NCBI RefSeq assembly: GCF_964194025.1
Contig: NC_134471.1
Coordinates: forward strand, 61,318,001-61,382,000
Source of the DNA: Convolutriloba macropyga
Lineage: Eukaryota
DNA length: 64,000 nucleotides
Reading direction: 5' to 3'
Numbering within the stretch: position 1 is the first letter of the stretch; the number at the start of each line of letters is the position of its first letter. A program made the translations under genes and the position numbers. This document shows, piece after piece, positions 12,001 through 50,105 of this stretch. The notes below the pieces were generated by a model. That model was not told the DNA's origin. It was given only the letters and a program-made list of their open reading frames with translations, and searched no databases.

Positions 12001-12820
12001 ATCTGCTTATTGGTACACGCTATTAATTCAGCTCAAAATTTTGACTATTGTTCAACTCTCGCATAACTTTTGAGACAATATACATAATAAGAAATCTGCA
12101 GTACAAACAGCAAGTTTTCATGGAGCATATTAGTTGTAGAAACAGTAGATCAGCCATTTTGTTAACGTCTATACTTAAAAATTAATTTGGAGTGGTCAAT
12201 GAGACATGCAAAGAAAACATAAAACACAGAGCTGCTGTACAAACAGCAAACTCGGTAAAAGCTGTAATATGGTACAAACCATAGATCAGCCAGTTATTTT
12301 AATGATCAGTTGAGAATCTTTTGTACAATTCGTTGAGGGGCAAATATAAATGTATGTAAACCTTCGATAGCAATTCTTTCTAGAAAATATAAGTTATTAG
12401 GTAAAACACTATGCAATTAAATGAAACTGGTTATTGGTACAGGCTATTGATTCAACTTGAAATTTTGACTTTTATTCAACTCTCACATAATTTTTGAGAC
12501 AATATACATAAATAAGAAATCTGCTGTACAAACAACAACTTTTCATGGAGCAGATTTGTGGTACAAACAGTAGATCAGGCTTTTTATTAACGTCTATGCT
12601 TAAATATTATTTTGGAGCGGTTAATGAGATATGCAAATTAAGAAAAAAACACAGAGCTGCTGTAGAAACAGCGAACTCTGTAGGAGCTGTAATATGATAC
12701 AAGACATAGACTAGCCAGTTATTTTAATGATCAGTTGAAAATCTTTTGTACCATTCGTTTAGGGGCAAATATAATTGTATGTAAACCTTCGATAGCAATT
12801 CTTTTTAGAAAACATAAATA
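1..12820. repeat. Satellite DNA array, ~421-424 bp monomer, ~30 copies, extends beyond window start
   Basis: Motif GGCTATTAATTCAGCTC recurs about every 420 bp (~308, ~729, ~1150 ... ~12442); monomers are clearly related but not identical; array ends abruptly near 12820. Confidence 0.97.
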
Positions 12821-12984
12821 AATGCTACTATTGTGTCCACTAACTTATATAACCCGTTGCTGTTGTTGTTGAACGTTGAAAAAAACAACAACCTCGGTAA
12901 TTTTCTTCATCATCATAAATAAATAAAAACTGCAGAAAAATTTGTGTTTCAAAGAAAAATTTTTGTTTTATTAAAGATTTCACA

Positions 12985-14800
12985 ATGCACTCGCAGCACC
13001 AGGCAGATCAACAACCCCAGACAGTTATACGAAAACGAAGACTTGCAGAGTGCAATGCGCAAAACCTTGAGCTCAACTTATCTCCTTCTACTTTGATGAC
13101 TGCAAACCGTCAACATTGAAAATTCTGTCCGACCAAATTCTGATTCCTTTAGAAGATAGGGGTTCATTGAAGGTTTCTATTTTTGTCTTCTTTTCCGTCA
13201 TCTAATGTTTTCGCCAAGTTCTCTTTCCAGGTTGAGCAGATCCAACAAAGAACGATGGGAAAATTTTCACCCCAAAAATTAAAGCAATTGGTCCAAAGGA
13301 AGTTGTTAATGAGCATCTGGCAGAACTGTCTGCAGTCTTTCATGGTTTGAAAATGGGGGATGAACCAGATATTGACTTTCCAACAATTGACGTCCAACAC
13401 AGATCAAGACTAAGCACAAGCGCTTGTAATAAGGAAAATACAGATAATGGCAATGCGGCTGTTTATACTCAGCTTTTGCCGCCGCAGCCTGATTTTTCAG
13501 AAGAAGTGGCTTTAAACCAGCAACAGAAATTTAAAAAGACAACACGTTGCACTTACTTTTCAGTTCTCACTTTTTTTAAATTCAGGAGAAGATAGTAAAC
13601 GACATAATTGATATCTTCAATGAAAATGAAAACATGGAAATAACACTTCCTCACCTTGATCCCATAACAGACAATCATCAACCTACTCTTTCAAAAAAAC
13701 GAAAAACTGCATTGTTTCATCCTACTGACGTAATGAAGTCGAACAAGCCTGCCAATGTGTCGAAAATTAGCAAGAGCTCAAAGACTCCAACGACATCTGT
13801 TAATTTGAACAACAACCAAGCCACATCGACACCTCTTCCGGTTTGTTTGTAAGGAAAATGATAAAAAAAGGACTCCTAAGTACCAAATTTTTATTTAGAA
13901 CGCTTTGCCTCAAATGGAAGAAGGTTTCTGCAAACTTGGTTCTTTAGTTGAGAATTTGAGTTCTATTACCGAAAAATTGAGCTCTGTAACGGAGAGGCTT
14001 GGGAGCGTAATTGAAAGGTTTGCTGCAGTGACTGAAAGAGCTGACAAAGACTCAGTCGTCTTCGAGGAGACCATCCACAATGCCTTCAACAGACAAGTCA
14101 CAGAAACACAGAGACTGGAACTTTCATTGAAAAAAATTGTAGGTATCAAAATGGAAAACATATTTTTTTAAACAATCGAAGATTTTTGAAAAGATTATAA
14201 AGAATCTATTAAAAAATTTTTAAGATTTTTAAACTAACACGTGAATAATAAAGACAGCACGAGCTGAAGTTGTTGCTAGAAAACCAGTTGCAATTGAGCC
14301 TACCTCAAACGAAAAAGTGATGTATAATGGTGAAGATCTACTTCGTATAAACGCATCAACAACGGCTAAATGCAGACGAAAAATAGCTTTCAAGATGTGG
14401 ACCACCCAAGAGTTAGTTGAGCACATGATATCACCACGAAAGAACCAAGGATCACTAGAGGCCTGCAATCGATGATGTTCGAAAACTTATTTGGGAAGGT
14501 ATAGCATCAAATTTATTGTCAAATTTTGCATTCAGATTATCAAAAGAACTAATATGCATGCTTATGAAAATATAATTACGCCTTAATAAACGTACGTTGC
14601 AATTTTAGAAGCTGTGAAGACAAAATACAAAAAACAACCCTCTCGCGGCCTATGAGGAAGCAAAAGATATTGTTAAAAGAGTGGGCAATAAAAGTTCTGT
14701 GCGCAAGAAAACAAAAGGAATTTAGAAAGAGGCAACTTGAATCAAACAGTCCCATTGCTGATGAAGAAAATGACACAACTGTTTTGCCGTACCAAAACAC
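12985..14800 (+). pseudogene. Degenerate multi-exon BEN-domain gene (N-terminal domain, coiled coil, C-terminal BEN domain)
   Basis: Exon-like blocks separated by short GT..AG introns. Coiled coil LGSLVENLSSITEKLSSVTERLGSVIERF (13905-14140). At 14250-14500 the + strand reads VMYNGEDLLRINASTTAKCRRKIAFKMWTTQELVEHMISPRKNQGS/frameshift/RPAIDDVRKLIWE, then EAVKTKY..AYEEAKDIVKRVGN after an intron; this fits the BEN pattern (F/W-T-x-E-E-L ... K..RPxLD..R). Frameshifts present. Confidence 0.65.
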
Positions 14801-15604
14801 ATAACAAGAAAAAAAAACTCTGATAAAATGAACTACATCCTCAAGAACGAGCAACTGAAAACAGAAAGAAAAACCAAATAAATGTTTGTTATTTTGCTAT
14901 TATGATGCTTAACTAAAACTTTTCACCAAAACATCTTCGGCTTTCAACTGTACCTCTTACTGTTGATCTTTTATTTATACACAAGAAAGAATACTGTGTC
15001 CCAATTATGTAATATTAAAATGATAATTTTCTCCGCTCAAGAAACTTGTGCAGTCATATTATTTTCCCCAACGACTAATCTTTATGAGCATAGCACTGTT
15101 GGAGTGACGTTTACTCTTTTCAATTATATCAAAAATTTCTGAAAATTTCAAGGCCTGTTTTTATGTTTAACTTTACCGCCATTCANNNNNNNNNNNNNNN
15201 NNNNNNNNNNNNNNNNNNNNNNNNNNNNNNNNNNNNNNNNNNNNNNNNNNNNNNNNNNNNNNNNNNNNNNNNNNNNNNNNNNNNNNNNNNNNNNNNNNNN
15301 NNNNNNNNNNNNNNNNNNNNNNNNNNNNNNNNNNNNNNNNNNNNNNNNNNNNNNNNNNNNNNNNNNNNNNNNNNNNNNNNNNNNNAGCGGTTGAGAAAAC
15401 CTTTCTGAAATAGAATCTAGTTGTAAAAACACCAACTCCCAATAAGATTATTGACCGCAAACAACAACGTTACAATTAACATCCTTGAGTTACCCCCCAT
15501 TAATTTAAGTTTGCTACTTCTATGTACACAATCTACATCTCTACACTTCTTCCACCACTTGCACACAACATGCGTGTGTATGCCTTTGCTTCCTATAATT
15601 CCGT

Positions 15605-16114
15605 TGTAGTATTGCTAATTGGATAATTGCCGCCGCAATAACCGATACTACAGAGAGTTTATTTATTTAACCGTCGACTTTGTGAACACTTTAGACTTAG
15701 TCTAAACTGACGAAATATTAAGAGAGAGCTACGCTGCTTGAAATGCGTTGAGTGAATGAATACATTATTCATAGCCAAATACTGCTGTGTATTATTTAAT
15801 ACACTATTGCACAAGCAATGTCGGCTGATTCAGTGCCGCTATTGATACGCGTATTAAGTGAAGGATACTGAAGCTATCCAGGCCACTCTTCACAGCACCA
15901 AGTCTGAAACGATAATATGACTAAAGACGAATAATAGTCGGCTCCACGAATGACTTAGAAATTGATACGGAGCTAGTCATAAGTCTTGTGATTTTTAGTC
16001 GTGTTGACTCAAGTATAAAACACGCACGAGCCTAGAGCTTGCTGCTGAAGGAAATCAGTACCAAACTCAACCAGCGCAAACTTAAGCCGCTTCATTTGTC
16101 ACTAATAATTTCTC

Positions 16115-16168
<54 letters not shown>

Positions 16169-16576
16169 CCATTCTCTGCTCTAAGAGCGAAACATCTACT
16201 CCACCGCTAAGCGGGAATACCAGCGGCGATTTTAAGTCTGCCGATTTAATAGCAAAATAGAGTTAAAGTAATATTCACATCCAGCAGTAAGATGGATCTA
16301 GTTTCTTGATTAAGATTAGATACCCCACCATATTTCCAATAGGACTTACCGCAAATTTTGCTCTATCCTTCTATCTGTTTAATAATTAACCTTTACATCT
16401 AATCAATTTTATTTCTAGCAAATAACTTTTAGATTTGGAAATTAGCAAAGAACATTGTGAGCATATAGTGAGACTTATTCTAGCATTTAATTAAGGTCGC
16501 TATAATAATATTGGTTTAGCTCTAGTGTGGTAATTAAGATCGAGCGAATAAAATCCGTACCACATCAGAGTTAAAA
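15605..16576 (+). repeat. 5' LTR of Element 1 (972 bp, TG...AA)
   Basis: Aligns end to end with 33078-34019 (about 95% identity by eye); contains a (CT)n tract at ~16111-16165. Confidence 0.95.
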
Positions 16577-16578
16577 AC

Positions 16579-16588
16579 TGGTGCGTCG
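16579..16588 (+). promoter_or_regulatory. Primer binding site, tRNA-Gly-like
   Basis: TGGTGCGTCG 2 nt after the LTR; complementary to ...CGACGCACCA, the 3' end of metazoan tRNA-Gly(TCC) as recalled. Confidence 0.7.
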
Positions 16589-18628: not shown

Positions 18629-18862
18629 ATGGAATATCTAATAGGAGACAAACAAATAAGTATTAAGGATAACTCAGCAGACTGTCGAGTGCTCAAATAC
18701 GTCACCAACGTTGAACAATCATACTTGACAATAGTCTACCGCATTAAAAGAACAAAAACTGTCGGACAGGTAATCATATTTAAAATAGAAACTACATCAT
18801 TAGATGTTTTGTTCAATAGACTTAATAAACGTGGCTCAATCATTGATTTACAAAGTATGTAG
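18629..18862 (+). CDS. Element 1 upstream accessory ORF u1 (77 aa, unknown function)
   Basis: ATG-initiated ORF; segment ISIKDNSADCRVLKY..QSYLTIVYRI aligns by eye with u3 and u4. Confidence 0.6.
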   Translation: MEYLIGDKQISIKDNSADCRVLKYVTNVEQSYLTIVYRIKRTKTVGQVIIFKIETTSLDVLFNRLNKRGSIIDLQSM

Positions 18863-18885
18863 ACTCAACCACAAGTTTCCAATAA

Positions 18886-19211
18886 ATGAGTGAAAGCAAC
18901 CAAAACCTGAAATTAGTACCCTTACCAGATAATAAGCTCTATATATTTGAAAAAGTTTCCATCTCTTCAACCACATTACCTAAATTTATTAGAGAAAAAA
19001 TCCAAAAAGAAAACGTTTATTGTGTCCTAATAAAAAAATCTGATAGCAATAATCAAATCATTTCCTATAGAGTCAGAGTATTTAGACCAATTTTAACAAC
19101 AGCATTCTCTGAAAGCAAAAATCAAAGTTCTGTCAAGCAGGAAAATTTTTCTGGTTAGAATATCGACTAACCGAAAAAGATTGCTATCAACGATTAAATA
19201 AATGTCTATAA
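18886..19211 (+). CDS. Element 1 upstream accessory ORF u2 (90 aa, probably longer before a frameshift)
   Basis: ORF 18886-19158; another frame continues FWLEYRLTEKDCYQRLNKCL* to 19211; VLIKKSDSNNQIISYRV resembles u4 ITITLSHNTGKVTSYKV. Confidence 0.55.
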
Positions 19212-19298
19212 TTAGTTAATCTCAAATATTTTTGTATAAAACAAAGTGAAAAACAAAACAAAAATTCTTTTCTCTTTTATTGTCTTCTAACTTAGCTT

Positions 19299-19522
19299 AT
19301 GAATATTAGTACAAAGCACCTAAATGTAACCATTTTGGACGACGATAAAGTTGCGAAAGTTAAAAAGTACACACTAAATAACGATAAACAATCTCTGATT
19401 TTTTATTACAAGGTTGTTAATGATCCGCGCCTACACTGTTTTGTAACATATGCAAGTTGTAATCCTGTTTTTTCTAAAAATTGAAAGCTTTGCACACGCC
19501 CAATAGTTATATTGGACTCTAG
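19299..19522 (+). pseudogene. Element 1 upstream accessory ORF u3 (frameshifted paralog of u4)
   Basis: LNVTIL..KVKKY..PRLHCFVTYASCNPVFSK then frameshift to LKALHTPNSYIGL*, versus u4 LNITIT..KVTSY..PGLACYITHAKNNPNFIKILNALCTPNSVFEI. Confidence 0.7.
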
Positions 19523-19598
19523 ATCACTAAATTTTTAATTAATTTGTAACTAATACTGTCTAAAATTAAACCTTTTTTAAAAACAAAAGTTGAACTTA

Positions 19599-19835
19599 AT
19601 GAGTAATGACGCTACCTCCTTGAACATTACTATCACACTTAGTCATAATACAGGCAAAGTTACTAGTTATAAAGTACATAAGAAAAAACAATATATGTAC
19701 ATTTTCATTAATTTTGATAACGTTCCAGGACTAGCTTGCTATATAACCCATGCAAAAAACAACCCTAATTTTATCAAAATTTTAAACGCTCTTTGCACTC
19801 CAAATAGTGTTTTTGAAATAAGACCATTTGTTTAA
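19599..19835 (+). CDS. Element 1 upstream accessory ORF u4 (78 aa, unknown function)
   Basis: Intact ATG-initiated ORF, clear paralog of u3. Confidence 0.7.
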   Translation: MSNDATSLNITITLSHNTGKVTSYKVHKKKQYMYIFINFDNVPGLACYITHAKNNPNFIKILNALCTPNSVFEIRPFV

Positions 19836-19985: not shown

Positions 19986-21252
19986 ATGGTGAACATTGTA
20001 GCATACCCAGACATTTCTCTTGAAAAATTTACAGGCTTAGACCCAAGTGAGGACGTAGCAGATTTTCTAAGTTTAATAGAACGAAAAAGCGAATTGTCTT
20101 TTGGAGTTAGACCAGTATTAGGAGACGCTCGAAATGATTATGACGCACGTAGAAAAGAATTATTTGGCTCAGTCCTAAGAGGGCCAGCAGCCCAATGTTC
20201 GATTCTGTACCCGCAGCGGAACCATGGGATGATGTTAGAACAGGTTTCTTAAATAGATTCACAGACGAGAAAGACAAGTACAGAAAACGAATTGAGGTAG
20301 AAAACATTCGCAGACAACCAGACCAAAGAGCAGTGGAAAAAGGATGGCCAGACCCATTGACAGATGCTCAAAGGCAAACTAAGTGTATGGAATTCTTTGT
20401 AAGAGGACTAACTCCTCCATCACTTAAACAAAAAGCGCATCAATTTCTGATAGAAACACCTCACGCAACATGGGAACAACTTAGAAATCATGTTAGCACT
20501 AAGGATTTAAGATTTGCAGTAAGTAGAGATTTCACAGGCACAGCTTCGAGCAGTATAGATAACAAAATAGAGATAGATGGTATAAAAGATCAGCTCCAAT
20601 AACTAGCAAGTCTAATATGAGAAAAATAACAGAATTATTGCAGCCTACAACCCAAATGAGCCTAGAAACAAACAAAATCACACACAATTTTGTAAATTTT
20701 GCTGAAAGTCAGGTCACACAATAGCATATTGCTATGCAAACAAAGACTTTAAAGAACAAAACAGACAGCAATCACAGCAAAGAGATAAGTGCAGAGATAA
20801 CTATCAAAGCTATAGAGGACGTCGTCCAAGAGAAGATAGTTATGATAGGAATCAGAACAGATACAGACAAGACTACAGACCAAGAAACAGTTACAGTTAC
20901 TACAACCAAAACAACCGCATACAATACTCTCTTTATCCTAGAACTGAGAACAATAACTTCAGAAATCGCTCACAAAGCTTTGAGAATCGAGATCGCCGCT
21001 ATAGTTGCAGATCCAAAAATTGCAGACCCCAGGACTATAGAAACTATTCACGGGAACAACAATATGATCGAAACGATTCTCGGACAAGGTATCGTGAGTC
21101 ACACAGTCCAAGACAGGATTATAGAAGAAGTAACAGTTCCAATCAGAAGGCTAGAGATAACAGTAGAGAACGTAACTCAAACAGAGTTCAATTCAGAGAG
21201 AATAAAGTTGATGGGTTCATTGTGGACAATCAACAAGATGAAATTAATTTAA
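19986..21252 (+). pseudogene. gag: Element 1 gag (frameshifts and stops)
   Basis: EKFTGLDPSEDVADFL..LRGPAAQ/FDSV..WDDVRTGFLNRFTD capsid-like segments; zinc knuckle CKFC*KSGHTIAYC at ~20691-20733; R/S/Y/N-rich basic tail. Confidence 0.88.
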
Positions 21253-24200
21253 GCTAGACAAGTCTCCGTACAAATATAAAAAGACAAACATTTTTATTAT
21301 CTTGTACATTCACGCCATCGGAGACAGTAATAAACATAACGGTTTCGAATCGCAGTTTCTAGTTGACACAGGATCAACCTGTTCCTTAATTAATTTTGAT
21401 TTTCTACAGGAAATTAAGTCACTGATTGATGTTAAACTAATTAAGTCTAGACAGAAAACAATTGCAGTCAACGGCGAAAGATTAAAATTGTTGGGCTACA
21501 TTCATGTCCCCATCTCATTTGACATTGAAGGCAAATATTACACAGATCTTAAAACATGGGTTTAGGAGAAAAACGGTTGCGAATTAAACAAAATTGGGAT
21601 GGATGTTTTGAATTGTGCCACAAAATCAATTGAGTTCACAACTCCATAAATGAACTTGAAAATTTAACCAAACGTCTCAATCAGGCTCTCAAAATATCAA
21701 ACAAAAACCTTTCCTTTTGTAAGTAAATTTGAATAAGTAGTGCTAAACAGACCTTTCGAGCTAGCACCAAAATCTAATAGAGATCTATCAATTCCACCAT
21801 CAAACCAATTTTTCAAACAAGGGACATCTTTCAAAATTGACAAACGCCTTCAAGACAAAGGTATCTACACATACAAAGTCTATTGCGTAAGAAAAGAAAA
21901 AGAATTACCAATAATGTTTAATAACCCCTGTGGTTGTAAAGTAACAATAGATAAAGGTTCAATAGGATACACTTTGGAAGAAATTTGTCAAAAAACACAA
22001 AAATACACACTGATTGATAATGTTGCGTTCTTAGATGTCTTAACAGAAACTGAAACAGATTTCAATCACATGTTTCATGTAACTGAAAAAGTTGAAAACC
22101 CAGTTCAGATTTTAGAAAATCCGAAAATAGACAAAACAGATATTAGACAAAAGTTGAAAAAAGCTCAGAAAAAGATTCAAGAAAAAGAATTTGCAGACCA
22201 CCATGAATTAGAAACAGATTTTAGTCAATATCTAAAAGACTTAAAACCCAAAGAAACAATAGATGGTGAAAATCAACCACAACAAATACCACTAGAAAAA
22301 CTGGAATTGTTTAGTATATCAGACCTTGAGTTTCGCAAAAAATTTGACTTCAGTCAATCAGATATTAACGAGGCACAATTACTAGATCTAATGAAACTAC
22401 TTGCCAGAGACAAGGACGTCTATTCTCAACACAAGTTTGACGTTGGAAAAATAAAGCAAAAATTTCACGTAAAACTTCTACCAAATTCAACCTTGACTAA
22501 GCAAAGACCATCGCGAGTACATTTGCACCATCAGAAAAAACTTGAAATTTTGATAGAACAGATCTGCAAAGCTGGAATCATTCGAGAAATGGGAGACGAC
22601 ACCGAAATGGGATCGTCATTTATTAATCCAGTAATCATCCTAACTAAAAAACATAGTGAAACTAGTAATCGACGCCAGATATCAAAATTCAATAAAAGAC
22701 CTGAGTAAATACTTATGGCCTCTAGAGCCAATAGGTTCTTTATTGACTAGATTGAACGGAAATAACTTCACTACAAGTGATTTATGCTCGGCATATAATC
22801 AAGTTCCTCTAAAGGAGGAAACACAACAACTGACAAGTTTTGTAATAGGTTCAGAACAATACACGTTTCAACATGGTTTTTACGGACTTTGCGGACTACC
22901 AAACTTTTTCAGTAGGATAATGACAATCCATTTTGCACCCTTAATAAAATCAAGACAAGCCGTAACTTACATTGACGACACAATCATGCAAGCTCAGACA
23001 GCTGAAGAAATGTACTCAATAATAAAAAAGTATCATCTTTTGCTACGCAAAGCAGGACTTAAAGCTCAGCCTGAGAAAACAAAATTCATTTGCGCAAAGT
23101 ACAATTCTTAGGACATGTAGTAGGGAAAGACGGCACTCAACAAATAAAGAAAAGGATTGAAGATCTGAAAGCCTTAAAAAACCTGAGAATAAGCGAGATG
23201 TAATTGCGAGTCCTAGGTTGTTTAGAATTTTACAGCATGTACATAAAAAATCTGCACACAGAGAGTAAGCTATTTTAAGATCTCATAAAAACTGAAACCA
23301 CATTTCAATGGACAGATGAACACGAAAAGTTGTTCACAGAAACTAAGGATCGTATAAGTGAAGATACAGTCCTAGCAATTCCAGACCCAAGATACCCTTT
23401 CCATGTTCATGTAGGTGCATCATCAATTGGTGTTGGTTCAGTTTTAGTCCAGGAATTTCCTGCCGGAAAACGGATAGTTTCATTTAATTCTTGCGTTTAC
23501 ACAAAAAATGAGCAAAAAATGAGTACAACAGCTAGAGAACTTTGTGGTGTAATTTCTGCTCTACAAACGTATGAGCATTACATAATAGGTTCCCCAGATC
23601 CACTGTATCTCTACACAGACCAAAAACCCCTACTGTATCTTTGGGGACGTAGAGGAAAATCATCTCATCGATTTTTCTGCTATCAACTTGTCATTTCACA
23701 ATTCCAAAACTTGAAAATAATCTGGACAGAAGGCAAAAACCTAGCCTTTCCAGGCATTCTAAGTAGACTTAGACAAATATCAACTGAAACACAAAAGAAT
23801 TCCGAAAGAGATTAAATTGTACGTCGAGTCAGGCAACGAAGAAAAATACTTCGTGTTGCATGACATTGAAAAAGGACAGAAAAACGATTGCTACCCCACT
23901 CTAAAACAAACTTTTCAAGGAGTTAAAAAATTGAATTTTGAGAAGGAACAGTTTTTTCAGACAGCCTATGAACCTAGTGATCGAATTTGTTCAAATTCCG
24001 ACATCTAAGAATCTTTTTTGAAAGGAAATGCAATAAACCATTATCGTGACAAATGCCCATTAAAAAAACCAATTTGAAGCGAACCAGACGACAGTGAAAA
24101 CTACTACTCTGATTTGTCTTTAGAATTTGATGATAATTTAGAAAAAGAAAAAGAACAATTTGAAAAAGTTTCTACAACAGAAAACAACTCTTTGCTAAAT

Positions 24201-26328
24201 TCAGTTGAAGTTTCAGATATAGAAATAGATGACATGAGTCTTGAGCAAGAGGTTGAAGCAAGCAAAACAACTTTTTATAGAATAGCAAGTGTTCGACTAG
24301 CAAAACAAATTTGCGAGAATAACGAAATCCCAGATGGAAAAGAACTCATTGAGAAATTATCTAGTTTTGCTAAAGATATTGACTTGAACATAGCAGCAAT
24401 CAGCCAGGAACAATTCAAAGACCCAGTTATCCAGACTAATAGACAACTTTTTGAGTCAGGAAACAAAGACGAGAAAAACATAAAGTTTCGACAATCAAAA
24501 GCTATAAAAGCATACTTGAATAATTTCGAAAAATCTTTGCCTAATTGGAAACATTTTGTGTTTTAAACAACCAACTGAAGAACCAAATATTCATAACATC
24601 AAGATATGCGCACCGTTATCCCTCTTCTCAAATATTTTTGAATTAGCTCACCAAGATTCACTTTCCGGACACTCTGGGAAAGACAAAACATTGTCAAGCA
24701 GAAAACGCTTTTTCTATTGGCCAGGTTTATACAAATGGGTTTCTCACTTGATAGCCAATTGTCTAGACTGTCAAAAAAAACGCAAAGACTTAAACGAAGC
24801 ACCATTTGAAAAATGGACAGAAACTGTACCTTTCCCCTACCACACGGCACATATAGATCACAAAGGTCCAACAAATCCACCCTCGAACTGAAATAAACAT
24901 TGCCTAGTAGTAATTGATTCCTTTTCATGTTACATTCAAGTTTATTCAGTTTCATCAACATCAGCAAGTGAAACAATATCAGCACTTGAGAAATTTTTTT
25001 TTACTTTCGTTACCCCACAAAAACTTGTGTATGATAAAGGATCAGCCTTTATGAACGCAGAGTTCACAAGTTGGACTCATGAACTTGGAATTACGCATGC
25101 TCCAAGAACAGCATAATCTCCCTGGACCAACGGAAAAGTTGAGATCCAAAACGAACACCTTGGCACAAAATTCCGAATCTTTTTTGAACAAGCCAATCGT
25201 AATTGGAGTGACTTAGCACCAAAGTTTGCGTTTGCTCATAACACAACAGCAAACACTAGTACAGGATTAACACCCTACGAAATTGTTTTTTGGCCAAAAG
25301 CCCCAAATTCTGCTTTCTCTGAAATTAGGATTATCAAGTTCTTCCGACTTAACTTGTAATTCAGAATATTGCAAAGATTCACCACACCACAAACATTCAG
25401 AACAGAGTAACAAGAACGGTCAGATAGATAAACTGCTAAAGCCGAAATTAAGTAGTTCTTTACTTGCTCATGAAAATCAATTCAAACAAATTTACAAAAC
25501 TGCATACAACAGAAGCCTTGAGGTTAACTCCACAGCACATCAAAACAGAAACAAACATAAACTAGGTAAGCCTTCAGACGTAGGACAGCTAGTTTTAATG
25601 GAAATTCATTCATTCGAGGATGGAAAATCTAGAAAGTTACATGAACTAGACCATATGAAGTAACAAAAAAATTGACAAATGTAAATTACGAAATAGAACT
25701 TGTTGCAAACAAAACCGTCAAGAAAGTTGCTCATAGAAACCATCTAATTGAGTACTTCCCAATCGAAAACGCAATTTCAGAATTAATTGTGGATTATGGC
25801 TTAAGGAATGAAAGGTTCCGACCATTTTACAAAAATTTAATGAATAAACAAATTGAAAAACTTAATAAGCTAGTTGATAAATTTTCTTTTCAACAACCCT
25901 TCACTGAAACTGAATTTTTCCCAGTAGACAATTTTACAAGTAATACAGATAATACACAAAATAAAAATCAACATGAGAAAACTCTTAAAGACAACAATAC
26001 CACAATAACAAAACCAGACTCAGGATTTCAGGAAGGTTTTTCAACTACATATGTAGATAACACACAAACACCTGATAGCCGTAGTCGTAGTGGAACTAGA
26101 AGTTCTACCCCATATCCCGAGACACGTATTCGTTTTGCACATCCACCTGACATTAGAGTCAGCCCTGTTAGAACCCAACCCCGTGTACAATCACCCGAAG
26201 CAAACCCAACTCCTTCGGATGATCAACGTTCATCTCGAATAGATCGTCGAATTTCGGGACGATTAAAAAACATACTACTCGCTGTCAAGCGGGATTTACT
26301 TAAACCATACTTTATATTTTTACTTTAA
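21253..26328 (+). pseudogene. pol: Element 1 pol (protease, RT, RNase H, integrase), disrupted
   Basis: Protease FLVDTGSTCSLIN; RT KLVIDARY..SDLCSAYNQVPL..FYGLCGLP..YIDD; RNase H FHVHVGASSIGVG..RELCG..YTDQKPL; integrase H-H-C-C (AHQDSLSGH..CLDCQ), HIDHKGP, YDKGSAF, NGKVEIQN; GPY-like PYEVTKK at ~25650. Confidence 0.95.
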
Positions 26329-26447
26329 AGGTACAAATCATCGGAAAATTATTCTCCGAGACCTTTTCACTTACTTTTTCCAGACTTACTCGTGTTTTTC
26401 TGACACTAAAAAAAAACTCTGTCAATCATTAATAAAATAAAGTTATT

Positions 26448-29029
26448 GTGAAGAACAATAACTTCCTTTGTAAATCTTTAACTATTTTGATTGTTTTTAT
26501 TGTTGTATCTTTTTGTAGACCCTGAGTTAGGAATAAGTTGGATGACATTTCCCCTACATTAAAAGTTGTTCATTATGACTGTTCAAAAAAGAAAGAAAGC
26601 AAAATGTATGCTTTAAATCAAGTAGCTCAAGGCAACATTAAACCAGAAAATATTAAAGTTGCACCCGCAATGGTGACACTTTACCAAAGTTCATACAGAA
26701 CAAAAGTAGAGACCATAATGTGTCGAGTAAAATCGCAAGCCTTAAGATGGCACTGTGGCTTTTTATCACACTCTTCCTTAGCATGCAACCAAAATTCTCT
26801 TACAACTGACTTAATAGTAACACCAGAGAATTGCAGACTTGCTAACAAAACAGGACAAATTGCAATAAGAGAGTACGATAGAACTTATAAATTAGATATT
26901 TCAAATGAAGTTTTAAAACACCAATACACACACGGTGGTCTGAATGAGGACGACCACCTAGAAGATAACACAGATTGCTCCTCGTCAGGAGAAATAAAAC
27001 TTTTTTCCTTTGAAACACAAATGCAAAGAGTTGAACTTGAAGTTGATCAGGAAACTGACTTACAACTCTTACAACTGACTTAATAGTAACACCAGAGAAT
27101 TGCAGACTTGCTATCAAAACAGGACAAATTGCAATAACAGAGTACGATAGAACTTATAAATTAGATATTTCAAATGAAGTTTTAAAACACCAATACACAC
27201 ACGGTGGTCTGAATGAGGACGACCACCTAGAAGATAACACAGATTGCTCCTCGTCAGGAGAAATAAAACTTTTTTCCTTTGAAACACAAATGCAAAGAGT
27301 TGAACTTGAAGTTGATCAGGAAACAAAATCAGTTTCCACCCCGTTAGGATTAAAATTTTCATGCGAACTTAAGGAAGGAGGTTGTGAAACAACATCACTA
27401 GACCCCTTCGCTTACTCATTGTTACAAAACTTTTCACTCAAAACGCAAAAATGATAAAGTTCACAAACGAACCAGATCCACCCTAATACAACATCATAAG
27501 TACGCACGACATGCAAAATGATGTTTATCGTTTGCAAAACAACATGAAAATAGACCACACGCAAGACATAGAACTTAGGATAAATAATGAAAGAAATTAT
27601 ATTTGTGGAAAGCCTAATCCTTTGTTTATTACAAACTTTGATGATTTTTTTGTTTCTTTTACAGGCCGATTTGATATGAATACGGGAAAAACAGTAATTT
27701 CAAAAAATAATGTTAATTATTACAAAATGCAAGCCGGCACCGACAACAGAATAAGGGTGAACGGTTTTACGAGACACCTAAAAACGAACTAGTTCGTAGC
27801 CAACATTTTGGAAACCATAGACAAATTTTGGAAAACGTTGGAAAAGACACTATCAATTATGATGCTCATATGCGTATGAAAATTAATTTCATGATGTATA
27901 AGGTCTATCGTGATTTGGAACAGTCTGACTTCCTTATTTTACAAAATATGTGCGAGCTCAGACGCACTCAAATCCAAATGATCAATGCATTGTCTTACGA
28001 AAACAATAGATTGGCCGGATACATGTTAACCGGAAATCGTTCAATGTTCTTAGAAATTGAGGGTGTTATAGATTTTCAATATCCGTGTCCAAAGAAAATT
28101 TCACCGCTTAAAATACTTGATCGCTGTTACGACCGTATTCCAATCTTTTATGACGGAAAAACTATGTTTGTTAATCCTATTACGCGCCAAACAGTTCAAT
28201 TTGCAAATGAAATAGACTGTACAGATACTTTCAAAAATTTGTTTCAACTTGATTTAGATAATAATAATTCTTGGTATCAGTTGATGCCGGCGCCAGTTTC
28301 TTTTAAACCGCCAGCTGTTTTTGCTCCACAACAAATTAGTCATATTCAAAAAATCCCAGATTATGATTCTCGTCGTGCAGGTATTTACACTGTAATTCAA
28401 TTGAAAGATCTTTTGAGAACAATTTTGCCCAAATCTGCATCTAATTCAGTCTTGAAAAAGATTTCTCGAACAGTTCTTCAAAACGCACACATAGACAATA
28501 GTCAGCGCGATATCTATCGCGCCGCAAGCCTCAATAATCGATTATATTTACATTCAATGTTGTCACCATCTTTTTTCCTTGATCACTTTAAGAGTACTTT
28601 TGGAGAAATTGGCTATTACGTAGAAAGAGCCGGAATTTTGTTTGCATCTTTCATGTTAATCATTTTTTGATCGATGTTGTAATTTTTATTCTAAGAGCTT
28701 TCGAGATACAAAAACTGTCGAAAAACACTATTGATTTTTGGAAAACATTACTAGGAGCCTCGTACAATTTGTTTCTACTTTCCATTGTAACATCAATTTA
28801 TCAAACACCTAAGGATGATGAAAACTCTGATAACCATACAAACAATGAACCAAATAGAAATCGGTGCCTCAAGCATACACCAGATAATAACATCTATCAC
28901 GACAACAGTCAAATAGAATTGTCACCACTCAATGCCCTTGAAGTAGCATCACCTCCTATGCCAGAATTACCACATCTTTACCTTAAAGTTCCTACTGAGC
29001 AAGAAGTAAATGCAATTGCTCCCACATAA
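26448..29029 (+). pseudogene. env: Element 1 envelope glycoprotein, chuvirus/herpes gB-like (class III fusogen-like), disrupted
   Basis: In-frame signal peptide (V)KNNNFLCKSLTILIVFIVVSFCRP* from 26448; VHYDCS, WHCGFLSHSS, MCELRRTQI, CYDRIPIFY..TMFVNPITRQ..DC and AGIYT motifs as recalled for chuvirus-like glycoproteins; C-terminal TM (GILFASFMLIIF/IDVVIFIL) and cytoplasmic tail. Confidence 0.8.
26797..27324 (+). repeat. 259-bp tandem duplication with 10-bp filler inside env of Element 1
   Basis: 26797-27055 repeated at 27066-27324 (period 269 bp), nearly identical; shifts the reading frame. Confidence 0.95.
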
Positions 29030-29112: not shown

Positions 29113-30434
29113 ATGATCTGAGATTCAAAACTTTAATGATCTTTTCGTATTTGAGTACCATAAAGTTTTATTTATTAAGTTTCACGAATTTTATGGACAT
29201 ATATATATATATTACTCTTTTATACCTGTTTATGAAAACTTAGTGCATTTAAAAGTTAGCGCACCCAAATTTTCTGACTTAGTAGATATACTAATTTATT
29301 CAAACAACAAAAAAAATTTATACTCTTAAGGAATTTTTACTTGATTGTGAATACGGTTTACTCGATTTAGGGAGCAACATCCACTTTCTTTTATAAAATG
29401 ATGCACCTCGATCTTCAAAAGTACCTGCGGGAACTGATTATCTTATTTGCTATTTTATACGTTTTAACTATATTTGCCTTATTTCTTAAACATTTCAGAG
29501 AACCAAACGTATCCACAGTACATTGCAAACACTTCGAGATCCATCAGCACGAGAATAACGTTTTGGAATGTACTTTTACTACAAAGGCAGTTTAGTAAGA
29601 ACTTATCAAATTAATCGATCTTTTACTATCCATTTTCCCTATCAAGTAACCCGCACCTTAGAAGTTTTGTTTGATTTTGTTGACTCTTGGGACGAAGGTT
29701 CGATAACAATAGCAGCTTTTTCTCCCTATTGGAACTTTTTTTTGATGCTTTCAGAGCAAAATTTAGACCAGATTCCCATTGATATTTCCAACTGGTGATG
29801 ATAAACATACAAAACAGATCCCTTACCCTTAAATTGAATAACACAAAATATATTATTCTTTGATTATCCACCACCCATAACTCCTTCATAATTTACATTC
29901 GACAACCCCATAGCATTTTAAACCACTATCTAAATTTCAAAATTAACCACCCCCAAATACTTGAAATTGCCTGTTCCTACCTTTTTATTCTAACCGCGAA
30001 CTAACAATTAAATACCCTATTCTTTTATTTTGATAATGTTTTTCTTATTAAGAAAAGAATTAGTTGAAATTGGTAGTTTCGAAAAAACATTCGAAACAGA
30101 ACCTTCCCTCCAAGCTTTCATTTTAGTACACTTGAGGAAAGTCGAATCCCAAGAACAATCAACCCTCTCAGTATACCCCTCTTCTTGTTATTGGAACTAT
30201 TCTTTTTATTTACTCGAAAATACGCCAAATGTGCCAAAAACATCTGCACAGAAAATAATAAATTATTATAAAATGATATTCCATTTAAACCAACATCTGG
30301 TCAGAATAACTGACATTAAACGTTCCTTCGTAGAAACAGGTAATTACACCTCCCCTTCCCTAGACATTTACTATATAAATATTGACACCCAAGAAAAAAT
30401 AATTAAAACACTTACTCCTCTATCACCCCACTAG
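29113..30434 (+). pseudogene. Degenerate accessory coding region downstream of env (one or more ORFs, unknown function)
   Basis: Successive + strand open segments (29118-29330, 29568-29798, 30030-30434), aromatic-rich; preceded by CTAACCTAACTGTTTCAG, a branch point plus acceptor-like sequence ending at 29108. Confidence 0.45.
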
Positions 30435-30542
30435 AACTTTTTTTAAAAAAATTGAAACATCCTTCCATTTAAAATTAAGTGAAATAAATCCCCCCAGCCA
30501 ACATCGACAACGAAACAATTTATCCTACCCGCGACTTTTAAA

Positions 30543-30979
30543 ATGGGAAACTGTTTATCCTTCAGAATAGTTTTTCCCCTTCAGAACTCATCACGCCCCC
30601 TTTTTGTCGAATATCGTGATGAATGTCCCATTTGTTAAAGAATTGCTTCCTGTTGGAAAAAATTGCGCCCTTCCGACGTAGACCCACCACCCCCATTTAG
30701 TTTGCACCGATTGCAGAATTAACCTATTCCGACACTCTTCCAACCCAAATTGCCCTCTTTTGCCTCCGCCACATTTATACATTATCCCTTAGTTTTTATT
30801 ACCAATGTTTCTGGTGCAATCAAGTAAAGAAGTGTGTAAGTTCCTCCACTCATCCGCACATAAAATGTCACGAGGACTTTGGACATTTTTTGTGTAATCC
30901 CTGTGCCCAGGAGAAAAATAATTGCCCCATCTGTTTAAAAAAAATCAACCCCCACGACGTATGGTCGGAGAGTTTTTAA
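30543..30979 (+). pseudogene. Myristoylation-motif RING-finger protein (~145 aa reconstructed; one stop, one frameshift); absent from the ORF track
   Basis: AAAATGG start, MGNCLSFRIVFPLQNSSRPLFVEYRDECPIC*RIASCWKKLRPSDVDPPPPF; second frame open 30701-30976: FAPIAELTYSDTLPTQIALFCLRHIYTLSLSFYYQCFWCNQVKKCVSSSTHPHIKCHEDFGHFLCNPCAQEKNNCPICLKKINPHDVWSESF*, i.e. C-x2-C-x16-C-x5-H-x2-C-x2-C-x6-C-x2-C. Confidence 0.75.
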
Positions 30980-30982
30980 ACA

Positions 30983-31043
30983 ATGCACCCCGTTCACGTC
31001 CCAATCCTTATCCTTTTCTCGTTCTTCATCACCCTATCTGTTG
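30983..31043 (+). CDS. Start of a possible small secreted or membrane ORF, cut by the assembly gap
   Basis: ATG 3 nt after the RING ORF stop; MHPVHVPILILFSFFITLSV is hydrophobic and signal-like. Confidence 0.3.
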
Positions 31044-31712
31044 NNNNNNNNNNNNNNNNNNNNNNNNNNNNNNNNNNNNNNNNNNNNNNNNNNNNNNNNN
31101 NNNNNNNNNNNNNNNNNNNNNNNNNNNNNNNNNNNNNNNNNNNNNNNNNNNNNNNNNNNNNNNNNNNNNNNNNNNNNNNNNNNNNNNNNNNNNNNNNNNN
31201 NNNNNNNNNNNNNNNNNNNNNNNNNNNNNNNNNNNNNNNNNNNNNNNNNNNNNNNNNNNNNNNNNNNACAAGCAGGTATACACTGCAACACAAAAAAACC
31301 AGCTGCGCGGGTCGTCGCACGGAGGGGAACCACGAGGTCCGAAACCCGATTTTAGTCAGTTAAATCTGACACAATTTGATTCAAAGCTCCTAAACAAATA
31401 AATTTTTGGTTAATAGGATTTTCCGATTTTAAAAACGGAGATTCTTTTCCAATTTTCAGTTCTTTTGAATTTTTTTTTCTTTCTTTCCAACCCGGTAGGA
31501 GTTTTGCAAAATTGATTCTGCACATAATGTGTGATTGTATTCCGGTACTCTAAGAATATGATTTTGATGGTACTTTAAAAAGTACGATTGTTTTCTTTTC
31601 AGCACAGCTAGATTTCGTTTTAACCTTTCTTTGTAAGTGTGTTTTTTTTATGTTTGACAAGATGTCGAAAGATCCTAGCAGAACACAACCCGCACACTGC
31701 TAGAGAAGCAGT

Positions 31713-31796
31713 ATGACCAACTGGATGGCAGATCTCCCACCATTAACAAAGAAACATAGAGCGATCCACCCGCGTCAACGTGGCCACTTCAACAAG

Positions 31797-31843
<47 letters not shown>

Positions 31844-32615
31844 TCAACCACACCAACACCAAAGACAACCAAACGCAAGTTATTCCCAGCCACTTCCCAA
31901 AAAACTTACCAAAAGTACTATTGATGATGGACTTCCAAAGGGACGTGACTTTCCAGAGAAACCACAGCGCCTAGAGGAACAATTTGGTCGAGAGCAGTTC
32001 CCCTTGAACGACAATCCACTATTTGTCAAGTCGCTTGACTACTCCCTCAGGCCAGAACACAACAAGTGTTGCCTCTCTGAACAGTCCATCATTCAGAGTA
32101 AGGTCACAGGCGAGAAAATCGCGGTCCCCTCGTCTGTGCTTCCTGTGATACCAGACTTCTCTCTGGTCCGATCGCTGAACTTGAGGAGACTCAGAAACCG
32201 TGATGTGAGTCAAAGGAAATATGAGATAGAGAATAAAGAATTGCACAGTCGCATCAGCGTTCCCTTTGAGATGATTACGGCTTTTCCTCCACAAGATGAT
32301 CCGGTAGAAACGATCTGTTCAGATCAGCTTCTAATGGAAAACCATGAGTTCAGACGACAGCTCTGGACCTCAGAATCCTCTGTTAGTGAGCTCCAAGTTA
32401 AGCTGGATCGTCTCACAATAAATGCAAATGAAGAGAAGGAGCGGTACCGAAAGCAAAACATCCAGTCCAGTCAAATGCTCAAAATTCGGGATAACCAACA
32501 AAAGGAGCTGATAAAGAAAACTGAGGCCCTAATTGAATCAAATAAGCAGATGGCCTCAGAACGTAAGAGACTGGGCCAGGAGAACAAAGAACTAATAAAA
32601 CATTCTGCCCTCTAA
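31713..32615 (+). CDS. 300-aa protein with Q/H repeat and C-terminal coiled coil, inside Element 1
   Basis: Uninterrupted ORF; (QQQH)n repeat; heptad region LLMENHEFRRQL..VSELQVKLDRL..LGQENKELIK; acceptor-like TTTTCTTTTCAG at ~31591-31602 upstream and AATAAA at ~32765 downstream. Confidence 0.7.
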
Positions 32616-33077: not shown

Positions 33078-34019
33078 TGTAGTATTACTAATTGGATAAT
33101 TGCCGCCGCAATTACCGGTACTACAGGGAGTATAATTATTTAACCGTCAACTTTGTGAACACTTTAGACTTAGTCTAAACTGACGGAATATTAAGAGAGA
33201 GCTATGCTGCGTGAAATGCGTTGAGTGAATGAATACATTATTCATAGCCAAATACTGCTGTGTATTATTTAATAAACTATTGCACAAGCTATGCCGGCTG
33301 ATTCACTGCCGCTATTGATACGCGTATTAAGTAAAGTATACTGAAGCTATCCAGGCCGCTCGTCACAGCAGCAAGTCTGAAACGATAATATGACTAAAGA
33401 CGAATATTAGTCGGCTCCACGAATGACTTAGGAAATGATTCGGAGCTAGTCATAAGTCTTGTGATTTTTAGTCGAGTTGACTCAAGTATAAACACGCACG
33501 AGCCTAGAGCTTGCTGCTGAAGGAAATGAGTACCAAACTCAACCAGCGCAAACTTAAGCCGCTTCATTTGTCACTAATAATTTCTCTCTCTCTCTCTCTC
33601 TCTCTCTTCCTCTCTCTGCTCTAAGAGCAAAACATCTACTCCTCCGCTAAGCGGGAATGCCAGAAGCGATTGTAAGTCTGCCGATTTAATAGCAAAATAG
33701 AGTTAAAGTAATATTCACATCCAGCAGTAAGATGGATCTAATTTCTTGATTAAGATTAGATACCCCACCATATTTTCAAGTAGGATTTACCCCCAAATTT
33801 TGCTCTATCCTTTCTATCTGTTTAATAATTAACCTTTATATCTAATCAATTTTAATTTTAGCAAATAACACTTAGATTTGGATATTAGCAAAGAACATTG
33901 TGAGCATATAATGAGACTTATTCTAACACTTAAATAAGGTCGCTATAATAATATTGGTTTAGCTCTAGTGTGGTAATTAAGATCGAGCGAATAAAATCCC
34001 TACCACATCAGAGTTAAAA
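33078..34019 (+). repeat. 3' LTR of Element 1 (942 bp)
   Basis: Direct repeat of 15605-16576 with a shorter (CT)n tract; followed by TSD CCGT. Confidence 0.95.
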
Positions 34020-34381
34020 CCGTATTGTCTTCACCCCTACACGGCCATCCAACGCAAGACACAATCCCTCATACAAATAATGGGTGGGGGTTTGCATGTA
34101 AATATAAGAATTACACCACCCAACACCATACCCCACCTCTGCTTCACGCCCGCTTCATAGGTGCCATCTACTAAACTAATTTACTCTCCTCCACCAGCCA
34201 CCTCCCGTCTCTCACTCAATCGAAGTCACTAATGCTTCCTACTTTGTGATATTACTGATTTCATCATTTCTCAATCCGACAATCGTCAATTTGACAATGA
34301 AGATTTGCCTTTTCGTTAACCCCCATTATCTTTAATCCAAGGATTATTCCGTCCACTTCGTGGACTGCCAACGAGCGCTTG

Positions 34382-34906
34382 AAAAAATGAGCGCTTGAAT
34401 ATGATTGGCCAATACGCAAGTTGAATAATTTTATTTTTGATCTACTTCCCCAATTTTGGCTTTCGAGCTATTGTTTTTTGGATCTATTTATATGTTTTTA
34501 TACAGCTAAAGTTAGAAATATAACTTTGTTCTGCATTTCTTATAATTTTCTATGTTGTTATACAATAGTATTAATAGTATAACTAGTAATGTCAACATCT
34601 GACATTTCATCATCGCTTTTTAGATTTAAAAGCAAGCCAAATCAAACGGGAAAGCTGAAACTTACTGATATTCAATTTGAAGATCAGTAAGTTCCAGCTT
34701 TCCCTTTTGATTTGGCTTACTAGTTATACTATTAAAACTTTTGTTTAAGAACATAGAAATGTATAAGAAAGCTATATTTCTAGTATAAGAATATATAAAT
34801 AGATCAAAAAACAATAGATCGAAAGCCAAAATTTGGAAAATAGATCGAAAATAAAATTATTCAACTTGCATATTGGATTGCAATCAGATTCAAGCGCTCA
34901 TTTTTT
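34382..34906. mobile_element. Foldback / MITE-like long palindrome (~525 bp)
   Basis: AAAAAATGAGCGCTTGAAT.. at the left is the reverse complement of ..ATTCAAGCGCTCATTTTTT at the right; arms pair, with indels, down to a centre TTCAATTTGAA at ~34672-34682. Confidence 0.85.
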
Positions 34907-47100: not shown

Positions 47101-48309
47101 CGGAGAATGTCCGGATATGGAATAATTGACACGTTACGTTGTCAATGAACAACGACTGGAAATGGAGTCTTAACTTGTGTTCATAATTGGTCAGTTTTGG
47201 CAGCATAGTGTAGACCTCTGTAAATAGCATCAGGGTAGCAAACATATAGCAATTGAAAGTATCACTCCTAACACCCGGGAACTATAAATAATATTCGAAT
47301 CCCCCAATCAGCGTACCATTGTCTTCTACGTTGGGTATAGGTTTAGAACTCCTCCTCAGCGTATCAAACATTGATTTTATACTGGGATACACACCAGGCC
47401 AAATCCTTGATATTCCGGATTGAATTGAACCAAAAAAAACTCGAGCACAAAGAATACATGACGCTGATTTATGAGAGAACTATGTTGAATACGGGAACTA
47501 TGTCTGTTTATTTTTAGGTCACTCTAGTGTTTCGTTATAGAATTTACACAACCAAAAATGACTGAATAAATTAAAAAGCTGTTATGTAATAATGATTTTC
47601 CTTCGTTGTAAAACAGGATTCTAAAAATCTGAATTTTTATTGTGGGTTTTTTCGGTAAATTTTTTTATCCTCCAGCTCATCTTTGAGCCAAAAGTGAGCT
47701 GAATATCCGACTATTTGAGTTGGTCGCGATGTTCGAATCAGATTGTTTCAAACAGACAGCTATAGTCCTGTTTAGCAGAAACTTAAAAGTTTGGTAAACA
47801 CATCCAAGGTCATTTCAGAGCGCATTTTATAGATCCTACATAAATATACGCTGAAATTCGCGGGAATGTGCTGAAAATTTCTTGACCCCGATATTAACGA
47901 TTTGATTTTCGCCTATGATAAAATTGTGAATCCTAGACGTACATTTAGTTTAAAGAAGACCCTATCATCGCCAGCATCTTCTCCTATTTCGACGAACAAA
48001 GTGCAGGTCTGCCCATTGCACGTCATGTTTGCTCCAGTGAACAGAGTTTCAGAGGCTGAAACACAAAATAATTACCAAAAACAATACCGAACTTGCAGAG
48101 GTCATCATTGTACCAGAGATTTCCCTATGACGAAGTCTTGGTATAGAGAGGTCAAAACTTGGTTATAGGAACCAAGACTTGAGACCTCTCTGCCCCCGAA
48201 TCTTACATATTTTGGGGGGTAAAATCTAAAAATTCCCCCCATTACCACATTACCCCCACTAATCTCACATCGTTTTACCACCCCCCCCCTCCAACTCCCC
48301 CCCCCCCCA

Positions 48310-49913
48310 TGTAGGAATGGAAAGTTAAACTTAAGCGTTTTTCGGAAAAGAACCAAATTAATACTGACCTTGAATTATTCCCAACACAAAAGCGAATTCT
48401 AAATTTGAAACTGTACAAAGATAATAATGGTGAAGAAATTTAAACTGATGAGAACGTTTGAATAAGTAAATATGGGCTCTGATAAAGATTATGTCACAGA
48501 TTGAACATCAAAATTCTCACCCACGTAACATTGAATTAGAAACCCAAATTAAGGGCCTAGGTTATCAAGTCATGATTGACCTTCTGAAAACATTTCCCGA
48601 AAAGGCATTTTTCACACAACGATTCGGAACATTTGGTAAAAATAGGACTAAACTATCGTAACCAAACATAGATAAGCAGTATATATACGGCTCAATTTTA
48701 GCAAATTTTTGTAACCAAAATCAGTCTGAAAATAATTATATTGTCGTGATAATCCGAATAGCGGAGTAAATTTTCTTAGACGAGTGAGTTAACAGATCTC
48801 TGTCGTAGTACTGAAAATTATAATAATTGTTGAACTAGTATACTGTGGTAACTATACTTTTCGTTAAATTAACTAAGCAAATTTTTAACTACTTTCATTT
48901 TTTAGACATTTTCTTATAACTTAGTAGAGCATAAACTGTATCTAGTAGGTATTTGCTAACGGTTCGATACTTGGCACCCGTAGGCATTTGTAACTAGTTG
49001 TTCTGTAGTAACCATAGCCTGTAATAATTAGGACTGGGTAAGACTTAATCGTTTCTTTCGGTTTTCTGTTAATCAACAGCGTAATTGTACAACTTTAGTA
49101 ACTTCACAATACATCTCTAAGGATCTGAAATCATACTCAATCTAGCTTCAAATTATTGGATTTAAATTAGTTTGGTGACTAGTAAAGTAGTGATCAACCA
49201 ATCAATAATTAGGTTAAGTTAGGTTAACGAACTGGAGGACAGCATCGAATCCCGGACAACATCAAGACGATTGATTTCTGAGAGTATTAATCGGCCAAGC
49301 TCCTTCTAGGAGACCGCATAGTGAAGCCACTCTGAGGGTAGGCCTGCCTGCTCGTAGAAGACTTGGCAAGTTAAGTTAACCCATGTAGTATGGAATGGTG
49401 AACCAAGTAGACAACTAAAAAGGTCTGAAGTAACCTGAAGTACCTGATGGGCAATATCTTAACGTTCTATCAAGTTGGTTAATACTCGTCTGGTTGGGTT
49501 GTGGAGTGAACACCGACGAGCTCTTTACGTCATCTACTATTTGTTTTAAGTATATTGGTTGATCGATTAATTAGAAAGTGAATTGAGGACCTGGTATAAT
49601 TCTCAATCTTAGAGTCACCAATTTATTTCATTTGGTAAAACACTTCTTAGAAGCTAAAATGTCTTATAACATAGAGAAGCATTACAAACATATGCCAATA
49701 CCATCATTATTATTGGCAATTGACTTAAGCCCCTGAAAATACTTTCTTTAGGACTTGAACGGAGGGCCTGGTATAACCCTTTAGTCCAGTTAAGAGTAGT
49801 AGGTTTGTGAAGTTTCTATCCAGTCCAGTAGTTTTCTCTAAAGATAGATTCTAGGAACAATTGTGGAATTGTGAATAGGGTAAAACTTCCACCCTAAATA
49901 TTCAGATTCTATA
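48310..49913 (+). repeat. 5' LTR of Element 2 (1604 bp, TG...TA)
   Basis: About 98% identical to 57513-59118 (~32 differences by manual count). Confidence 0.97.
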
Positions 49914-49914
49914 T

Positions 49915-49934
49915 TGGCGACCACAGAGGGATTC
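49915..49934 (+). promoter_or_regulatory. Primer binding site, tRNA-Arg-like
   Basis: TGGCGACCACAGAGGGATTC, 1 nt after the LTR; near-complement of the tRNA-Arg(TCG) 3' end ..CCCTTCGTGGTCGCCA as recalled. Confidence 0.8.
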
Positions 49935-50105
49935 TTCTGATTGGAAGGCGGTTTTGCATTTTTTTTAAAAAAAAACAAAAATTTAGAGTTTTAGAGAACC
50001 GATGAATTAGATCTTTGGAATACGTCCCAAAGGTAAAACTCATCTATATATATTTTTTCTTCGTGTCATTTGGTTTTACATCGAAAAATACTTCAATTAC
50101 CAAAA

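Follow-up and report, generated by a model that had tools for sequence, protein, structure and literature searches.

We analysed a window of 64,000 nt from Convolutriloba macropyga (GCF_964194025.1, NC_134471.1:61,318,001–61,382,000, forward strand). The window contains an 18.4-kb Ty3/gypsy element with LTRs, gag, pol, a gB-type env, and about 12–15 extra ORFs; about ten of these have 65–110 aa, and one is the double-RING accessory gene considered here. The features of the element are as follows.

15605–16576, +: 5' LTR, preceded by the target-site duplication CCGT (15601–15604); a TGG primer-binding-site-like sequence lies at 16579
18629–19835, +: four small ORFs upstream of gag
19986–21251, +: gag, without Gly2 and with YPx3L at residue 7; Retrotrans_gag was matched in an open relative
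21250–26330, +: pol, decayed, with protease, reverse transcriptase (RT), RNase H, then integrase, in the Ty3/gypsy order (Pfam)
26448–29026, +: env of class III/gB-type (PF24664), frameshifted and with a 269-bp internal duplication
29123–30540, +: six tightly packed ORFs of 65–88 aa from env to the RING gene, partly decayed; three of them form one paralogous family
30543–30979, +: double-RING accessory gene, decayed in this copy (sequence and alignment to open copies)
30543–30692, +: piece 1 of this copy, with MGNCLS, the first Cys pair, and the first His; in-frame stop at 30636–30638
30691–~30760, +: piece 2, in a second frame, with a His and two Cys pairs of cluster 1
30758–30979, +: piece 3, in a third frame, with an aromatic linker strand and the second C2H2C4 cluster
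30983–31043, +: start of an entirely hydrophobic micro-ORF right behind the RING stop, running into a stretch of N
31650–32615, +: last accessory ORF (~300–370 aa in relatives), with a Gln-rich start and a coiled-coil-like end; no significant Pfam match
33078–34019, +: 3' LTR, followed by CCGT (34020–34023)

The match of env to PF24664 had an E value of 2e-22 in the window and 1e-38 in an open relative. In an alignment of 975 columns, the two LTRs mismatch at 47 and are gapped at 36, and the window copy is therefore old. Relatives in the same genome possess LTR pairs that are 99.3, 99.6, and 100% identical and frames that are mostly open; judged by these sequences, the relatives are recently mobile. 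Three element families were examined, namely A (that of the window), B, and C, the Gag proteins of which are 56–74% identical. Behind env, each family carries six to eight ORFs of 65–105 aa, the RING gene or genes, hydrophobic micro-ORFs, and a last ORF of 290–415 aa. The RING genes per element number one in family A, two in B, and three in C, and three or four small ORFs precede gag in families A and C. The RT relatives form a group at 44–97% identity, with the next group at ~30%. At a further locus (L109, G000:C5:66659001-66669000), the post-env cassette, with its one RING gene, is present three times in tandem and has open frames, and P0153, a Pol relative of this clade, has a macro domain (PF01661, precomputed Pfam).

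Relative to an open natural copy, the RING gene of the window is damaged by one stop and two frame changes (matching pieces 30543–30692, 30691–~30760, and 30758–30973). The sequence-only reading of this stretch had proposed a myristoylated RING-finger protein with a late-domain-like motif. Several of its observations were confirmed: the ATG at 30543 opens MGNCLS, CPIC stands ahead of the stop at 30636–30638, the C-terminal Cys cluster runs up to the stop at 30977–30979, and Gag starts at 19986 with MVNIV and has no Gly2. Its reconstruction, in which two halves were joined by a single change near 30698, disagrees with the alignment, as the window copy follows the open copy in three frames and a two-frame join omits the middle piece, which bears two Cys pairs of zinc cluster 1. 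The late-domain-like motif PPPPFS is off-frame and arises beyond the first frame change; DPPPPF occurs at 1 of 50 loci (the window), and DQPPHL at 42 of the 50. The proposed C3HC4 RING used C108 and H114, which vary; H105 and H109 are conserved, and the ligands form two C2H2C4 clusters.

The stretch is repetitive in the genome, with all 40 scored DNA matches spanning it at 85–100% identity. The open 144-aa frame was read, unedited, at 8 of the 29 other loci of the DNA search. One open frame of 143–145 aa was found at 25 of 50 distinct family loci, a set biased toward open copies because 30 of the loci were top protein matches. The sequence-only reading had expected one continuous frame in other copies, and both halves are indeed in frame there. 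The gene also recurs in three element families and in other genomes, so that a one-off captured host fragment does not describe it. All 67 distinct RING loci adjoin element ORFs (66 small-ORF matches and 61 last-ORF matches).

Rates of substitution were calculated for open frames only. Between two subfamilies of family A (8 and 14 frames), net dS was 0.35 and net dN was 0.029, which gives a net dN/dS of 0.08. A second calculation, in which pairs with dS ≤0.05 were dropped, gave dN/dS values of 0.09 for the RING gene (18/18 pairs) and 0.08–0.27 for the six ORFs upstream of it. Family B is little diverged and gave 0.37–0.44 (1–2 pairs). Purifying selection on the RING gene is clear from these frames. 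The stretch in the window is a dead copy; the accessory gene from which it derives is under selection in these env-bearing Ty3/gypsy elements.

The product of the open copies consists of 144 aa, with a Met-Gly N-terminus, a disordered linker of ~25 aa, two C2H2C4 clusters, and a short tail bearing Trp. The two sets of eight putative zinc ligands, read from the sequence, are in RING spacing: C28, C31, H42, H51, C54, C57, C70, and C73 in cluster 1, and C88, C91, H105, H109, C117, C120, C127, and C130 in cluster 2, where just 6–7 residues separate ligands 6 and 7. All 16 candidate Cys/His ligands are invariant across the nine sequences compared, which represent six paralogues and three element families (25–93% identity to the first), and the complete pattern is present in 63 of 72 open frames. 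On inspection, the sequence and model lack a long hydrophobic segment or helix. In cluster 1, the first Cys pair contains I, V, or L in 13 of 14 sequences, the helix position is hydrophobic in 15 of 15, and the last pair contains Pro, which presumably also faces the E2, in 15 of 15. Conservation does not extend to an Arg or Lys behind the last Cys (3/15 for cluster 1 and 5/15 for cluster 2). Hydrophobic RING positions of this kind are E2 contacts, and the Arg or Lys is common in active RINGs and not universal (PMC7010608, in excerpt).

Myristoylation at Gly2 is predicted from the N-terminal sequence. A Met-Gly start is found in four of six RING paralogues, as opposed to 0 of 34 other element ORFs (Fisher p 1.6e-4; the paralogues are not independent), and none of the families examined is without a Met-Gly RING paralogue. 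MGxxx[ST] fits three RING paralogues, including all 22 open family-A frames; of the others, two lack Gly2 and one lacks Ser/Thr6. The palmitoylatable Cys noted in the sequence-only reading, at position 4, is present in only one of the six paralogues, that of family A.

A profile search of 1.84 billion representatives returned 51 matches, including double-cluster proteins of the same pattern. The double-RING relatives outside this genome are P0043, P0050, P0051, P0053, P0055, and P0060, and 4 of 12 further relatives start with Met-Gly. The two outside relatives that were compared, P0051 and P0053, are not encoded in this genome, where their best matches have 37–46% identity over the matched parts. 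The search also gave single RINGs in unrelated proteins (P0057, P0065, P0069–P0071, P0075, P0076, and P0078), most of which share the His-His pattern of cluster 1; one of these proteins has ankyrin-like repeats, and another has two such RINGs behind a signal-like N-terminus.

In the AlphaFold model, a core at residues 31–130 has pLDDT 80–90 and the N-terminus is disordered; cluster 1 is predicted to adopt a RING fold. The PDB fold matches were RING/U-box E3s with best Z scores of 5–7, such as a GID ligase subunit (Z 7.1, 70 residues, rmsd 3.6 Å) and RNF146 (Z 6.0, rmsd 2.0 Å, 55 residues). Lassa Z stood at rank 49 (Z 4.6, rmsd 2.4 Å over 50 residues), level with many RINGs. The matches among viral models were led by PE38, ICP0, IE2, CG30, and large-DNA-virus RINGs, all weak (E ≥0.018), and no named arenavirus Z was among the top 50. 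The fold matches are weak throughout (Foldseek E ≥0.018; Z ≤7.1) and lie largely within residues 15–90, and cluster 2 is therefore a RING by pattern only. Profile matches included RNF4, TRIM32, BRCA1, and MDM2. Pfam zf-C3HC4_3 was matched by eight of nine members (best E 3.6e-6), and zf-P11, the Pfam family of arenavirus Z, was absent from the nine at E ≤0.1. In Atlas, unnamed and large-DNA-virus RING clusters scored 0.90–0.93, and arenavirus Z scored 0.88 at rank 9. In these searches, the nearest matches, all of them weak, were E3 ligases of cells and viruses, and arenavirus Z lay far down the list. An origin of the RING from large DNA viruses is a lead.

The best PDB profile match was the engineered RNF4 RING-RING fusion (PDB 4AP4, E 1.8e-4), in which the aromatic tail after RING 1 aligns. 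This fusion and the RING1B-BMI1 fusion (6WI7/6WI8) occupied the top Foldseek rows with poor whole-chain superposition (TM ~0.3, rmsd ~11 Å). A classic single-chain RING dimer, suggested by the profile, is disfavoured because the model fails to superpose on these fusions; the matches may reflect merely two RING-like units in tandem. When the double RING was modelled together with the UBE2N-like E2 encoded by an intronless gene of the host (L122), the complex scored 0.04 against a mark of 0.34, in a run without alignments or controls.

Among 72 open RING frames, none carries PPxY, LPxY, or PT/SAP, and a YPxL-type motif was matched once. PPxY matches occur at 8 loci and are off-frame in all 3 that were inspected; a PPxY late domain was thus rejected. 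Gag begins with YPDI(S/A)L, a YPx3L motif and candidate late domain, in families A, B, and C (window 19986–20030), and a separate late-domain carrier would be unneeded because of this conserved start. The Env tail of family C holds PSAP and YPNL.

The ORFs behind env abut through TAATG overlaps or gaps of 1–3 nt (L065:6840-8689; L094:4388-5652), and a T-rich AG lies 17–24 nt upstream of the first of them in all three families. This layout is compatible with one spliced RNA that would be read by stop-restart. A family of paralogues of 75–94 aa, with three to five per element (window 29568–30540; L062, L065, and L094), has invariant Phe, Trp, and Phe (12 aligned) and is under selection, with dN/dS values of 0.07–0.26 in families A and C. 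Its model (pLDDT 87) has four strands and a helix, and EF-P/eIF5A gave the best fold match, a weak one to its SH3-like N-domain (Z 5.5, rmsd 2.7 Å, 54 residues); a translation-related role suggested by this model is only a lead. The small post-env family gave no Pfam, PDB-sequence, or Atlas match, and a possible likeness to PC4 was unsupported. The hydrophobic micro-ORF behind the RING stop encodes 31–34 aa at 35 of the 50 family loci, and micro-ORFs of 32–67 aa trail the RING genes in all three families (L062:8566-8757; L094:5691-5894, 6298-6669). The 67-aa micro-ORF of family C had a dN/dS of 0.88 (4 pairs), and selection on the micro-ORFs is therefore unsupported.

We compared the element and its RING protein with known systems. 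The Ty3/gypsy 'errantiviruses' with a gB-type env (1512 elements; Chary and Hayashi, eLife 2026, PMC13524379, in part) share with the present element the LTRs, the gag-pol-env order, the gB-type env, and young multi-copy insertions. They differ from it in that about 12–15 extra ORFs are present here, including one to three double-RING genes; in the main text of PMC13524379, RING, accessory, myristoylation, and ubiquitin are not mentioned. Other extras of LTR elements are the ORF3 enzymes of rotifer elements (PMC5408684, excerpted, without mention of a RING) and CERV of Cer1 (PMC10309623); PMC7084138, likewise in extract, deals with host ligases. The literature searched, which was that outside subscription journals and Repbase and was partly available as excerpts, described no LTR element with an accessory gene of RING type. 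The sORF2 of MDG1-group LTR retrotransposons (bioRxiv 10.1101/2025.03.14.642691, in part) is likewise a small, separately encoded protein of a gypsy element with MGxxxS/T; unlike the RING protein, it is a FAST-like fusogen of env-less elements and has a single transmembrane segment, a polybasic tail, and no zinc finger.

The RING protein shares the C2-H2-C4 ligand order with MDM2/MDMX, to which weak profile and fold matches were found (MDM2, best E 0.018). It differs from them in having two clusters in one chain of 125–170 aa, a His-His spacing of 7–8 in cluster 1, and an element-encoded product of clusters only, with no p53-binding or acidic domain and no significant sequence homology. RINGs of the ICP0, PE38, IE2, and CG30 type are mostly single C3HC4 domains in larger, often nuclear proteins; these herpesvirus, baculovirus, and large-DNA-virus E3-type RINGs are virus-encoded and gave the best viral fold matches and the best Atlas matches (0.90–0.91), all weak. 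The C2H2C4 order has been called unique to Mdm2/Mdm4 (PMC6372010, in excerpt). Arenavirus Z has small size, a Gly2 myristoylation motif, and RING-type zinc binding (putative here) in common with the present protein; it is a self-budding matrix protein with a single RING (zf-P11), and most members carry PPxY and/or PT/SAP (PMC3640512, in excerpt); the present protein differs in having two clusters, no proline-rich late domain, no significant sequence similarity, and a retroelement as its source.

We favour, with a probability of about 0.55, the reading that the 144-aa product would be a predicted-myristoylated, membrane-tethered ubiquitin E3 ligase acting against host membrane or restriction proteins. 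The RNA downstream of env would be polycistronic, and the TAATG overlaps and short gaps suggest that the RING gene would be translated from it by stop-restart. A myristate at Gly2 would anchor the protein at the inner membrane face, cluster 1 would dock a host E2, and cluster 2 may be a shortened built-in partner or a substrate-binding module. Host membrane or restriction proteins would then be tagged with ubiquitin; more speculatively, the hydrophobic micro-peptide encoded directly behind the RING gene could be a membrane adaptor. The RING paralogue number of one, two, or three among the families is as expected for host-targeting genes. The unconserved Arg/Lys after the last Cys, the weak fold matches, and the two of six paralogues that lack Gly2 argue against this reading. 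RING folds also occur in non-ligase roles, for example in arenavirus Z.

The same protein could instead carry its two zinc fingers without catalysis, as an adaptor or decoy at membranes that would sequester a host E2, an E3 (as an MDMX/BARD1-like partner), or a defence protein. The unconserved linchpin Arg/Lys and the shortened cluster 2 are in accord with this, as is the C2H2C4 order of MDM2/MDMX, since MDMX acts as a partner without engaging the E2 (PMC7010608 and PMC6372010, in excerpt). However, the E2-facing hydrophobic residues of cluster 1 are kept across all relatives and the nearest viral folds are annotated E3-type RINGs, and we regard a decoy as possible though not probable. A separate matrix protein like arenavirus Z, which would link Env and a Gag lacking myristoylation to the membrane and would drive budding, is improbable. 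A Gly2 motif and a RING in one small protein, a Gag without Gly2 in all three families, and a Met-Gly paralogue in each family examined agree with such a role; Z itself was matched weakly (Atlas 0.88, rank 9; Lassa Z, Z-score 4.6, rank 49), and certain Z proteins have no proline-rich late domain (PMC3640512, in excerpt). Nevertheless, the protein has two clusters rather than one, PPxY/PTAP was found in 0 of 72 open frames with one YPxL-type match, Z lies outside the top 50 viral folds, Gag owns a YPx3L, the RING paralogue number is variable, and the position as seventh ORF behind env would suggest a low output. That the gene is a neutral passenger, or a host fragment captured once, might be argued from the broken window copy and the half of the examined loci that are not open; this is ruled out by the selection and distribution data: dN/dS is 0.08–0.09, 67 of 67 RING loci lie beside element ORFs, six paralogues occur in three families, and the outside relatives P0051 and P0053 are not encoded in this genome.

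Of the sequence-only reading, what survives is a conserved protein that the element encodes separately and that bears a myristoylation motif and RING-type clusters, together with the proposal that it may be a membrane-anchored E3. Its late domain, its one C3HC4 RING, and a matrix role resembling that of arenavirus Z are unsupported. A broader reading, which we consider unlikely, is that these elements form an invertebrate endogenous retrovirus clade with a counter-defence kit in the style of DNA viruses. The kit would comprise an expanding family of myristoylated double-C2H2C4 E3s, each with transmembrane micro-peptides behind it that would adapt substrates (an arrangement like a split MARCH/K3-K5 or Vpu), a polycistronic RNA, and a family of small barrel proteins. 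If this is true, an LTR retrotransposon would for the first time be seen to encode a ubiquitin ligase, and C2H2C4 RINGs would have a lineage beyond the Mdm proteins.

Ty3/gypsy elements are usually viewed as three-gene parasites with one or two extras at most. The present elements, which appear recently mobile, keep a dozen accessory genes under selection, including proteins built like viral E3 ligases, and the double C2H2C4 module would be a new natural RING architecture. If the proteins are ligases, retrotransposons would, like herpesviruses and baculoviruses, degrade proteins of the host, and the substrates would reveal the anti-retroelement defences of a little-studied animal.

Three further features were observed in the window. 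Positions 1–13000 are a satellite tandem array with a unit of ~423 bp in about 31 copies, and a palindrome of ~470 bp composed of nested inverted repeats, MITE-like, lies at 34409–34876. A second LTR element occupies ~48300–58500, with a repeat spacing of ~9.2 kb, a gag-like region, protease, and RT-RH-IN; it contains an extra ORF of 374 aa (55466–56590) with no significant Pfam match.
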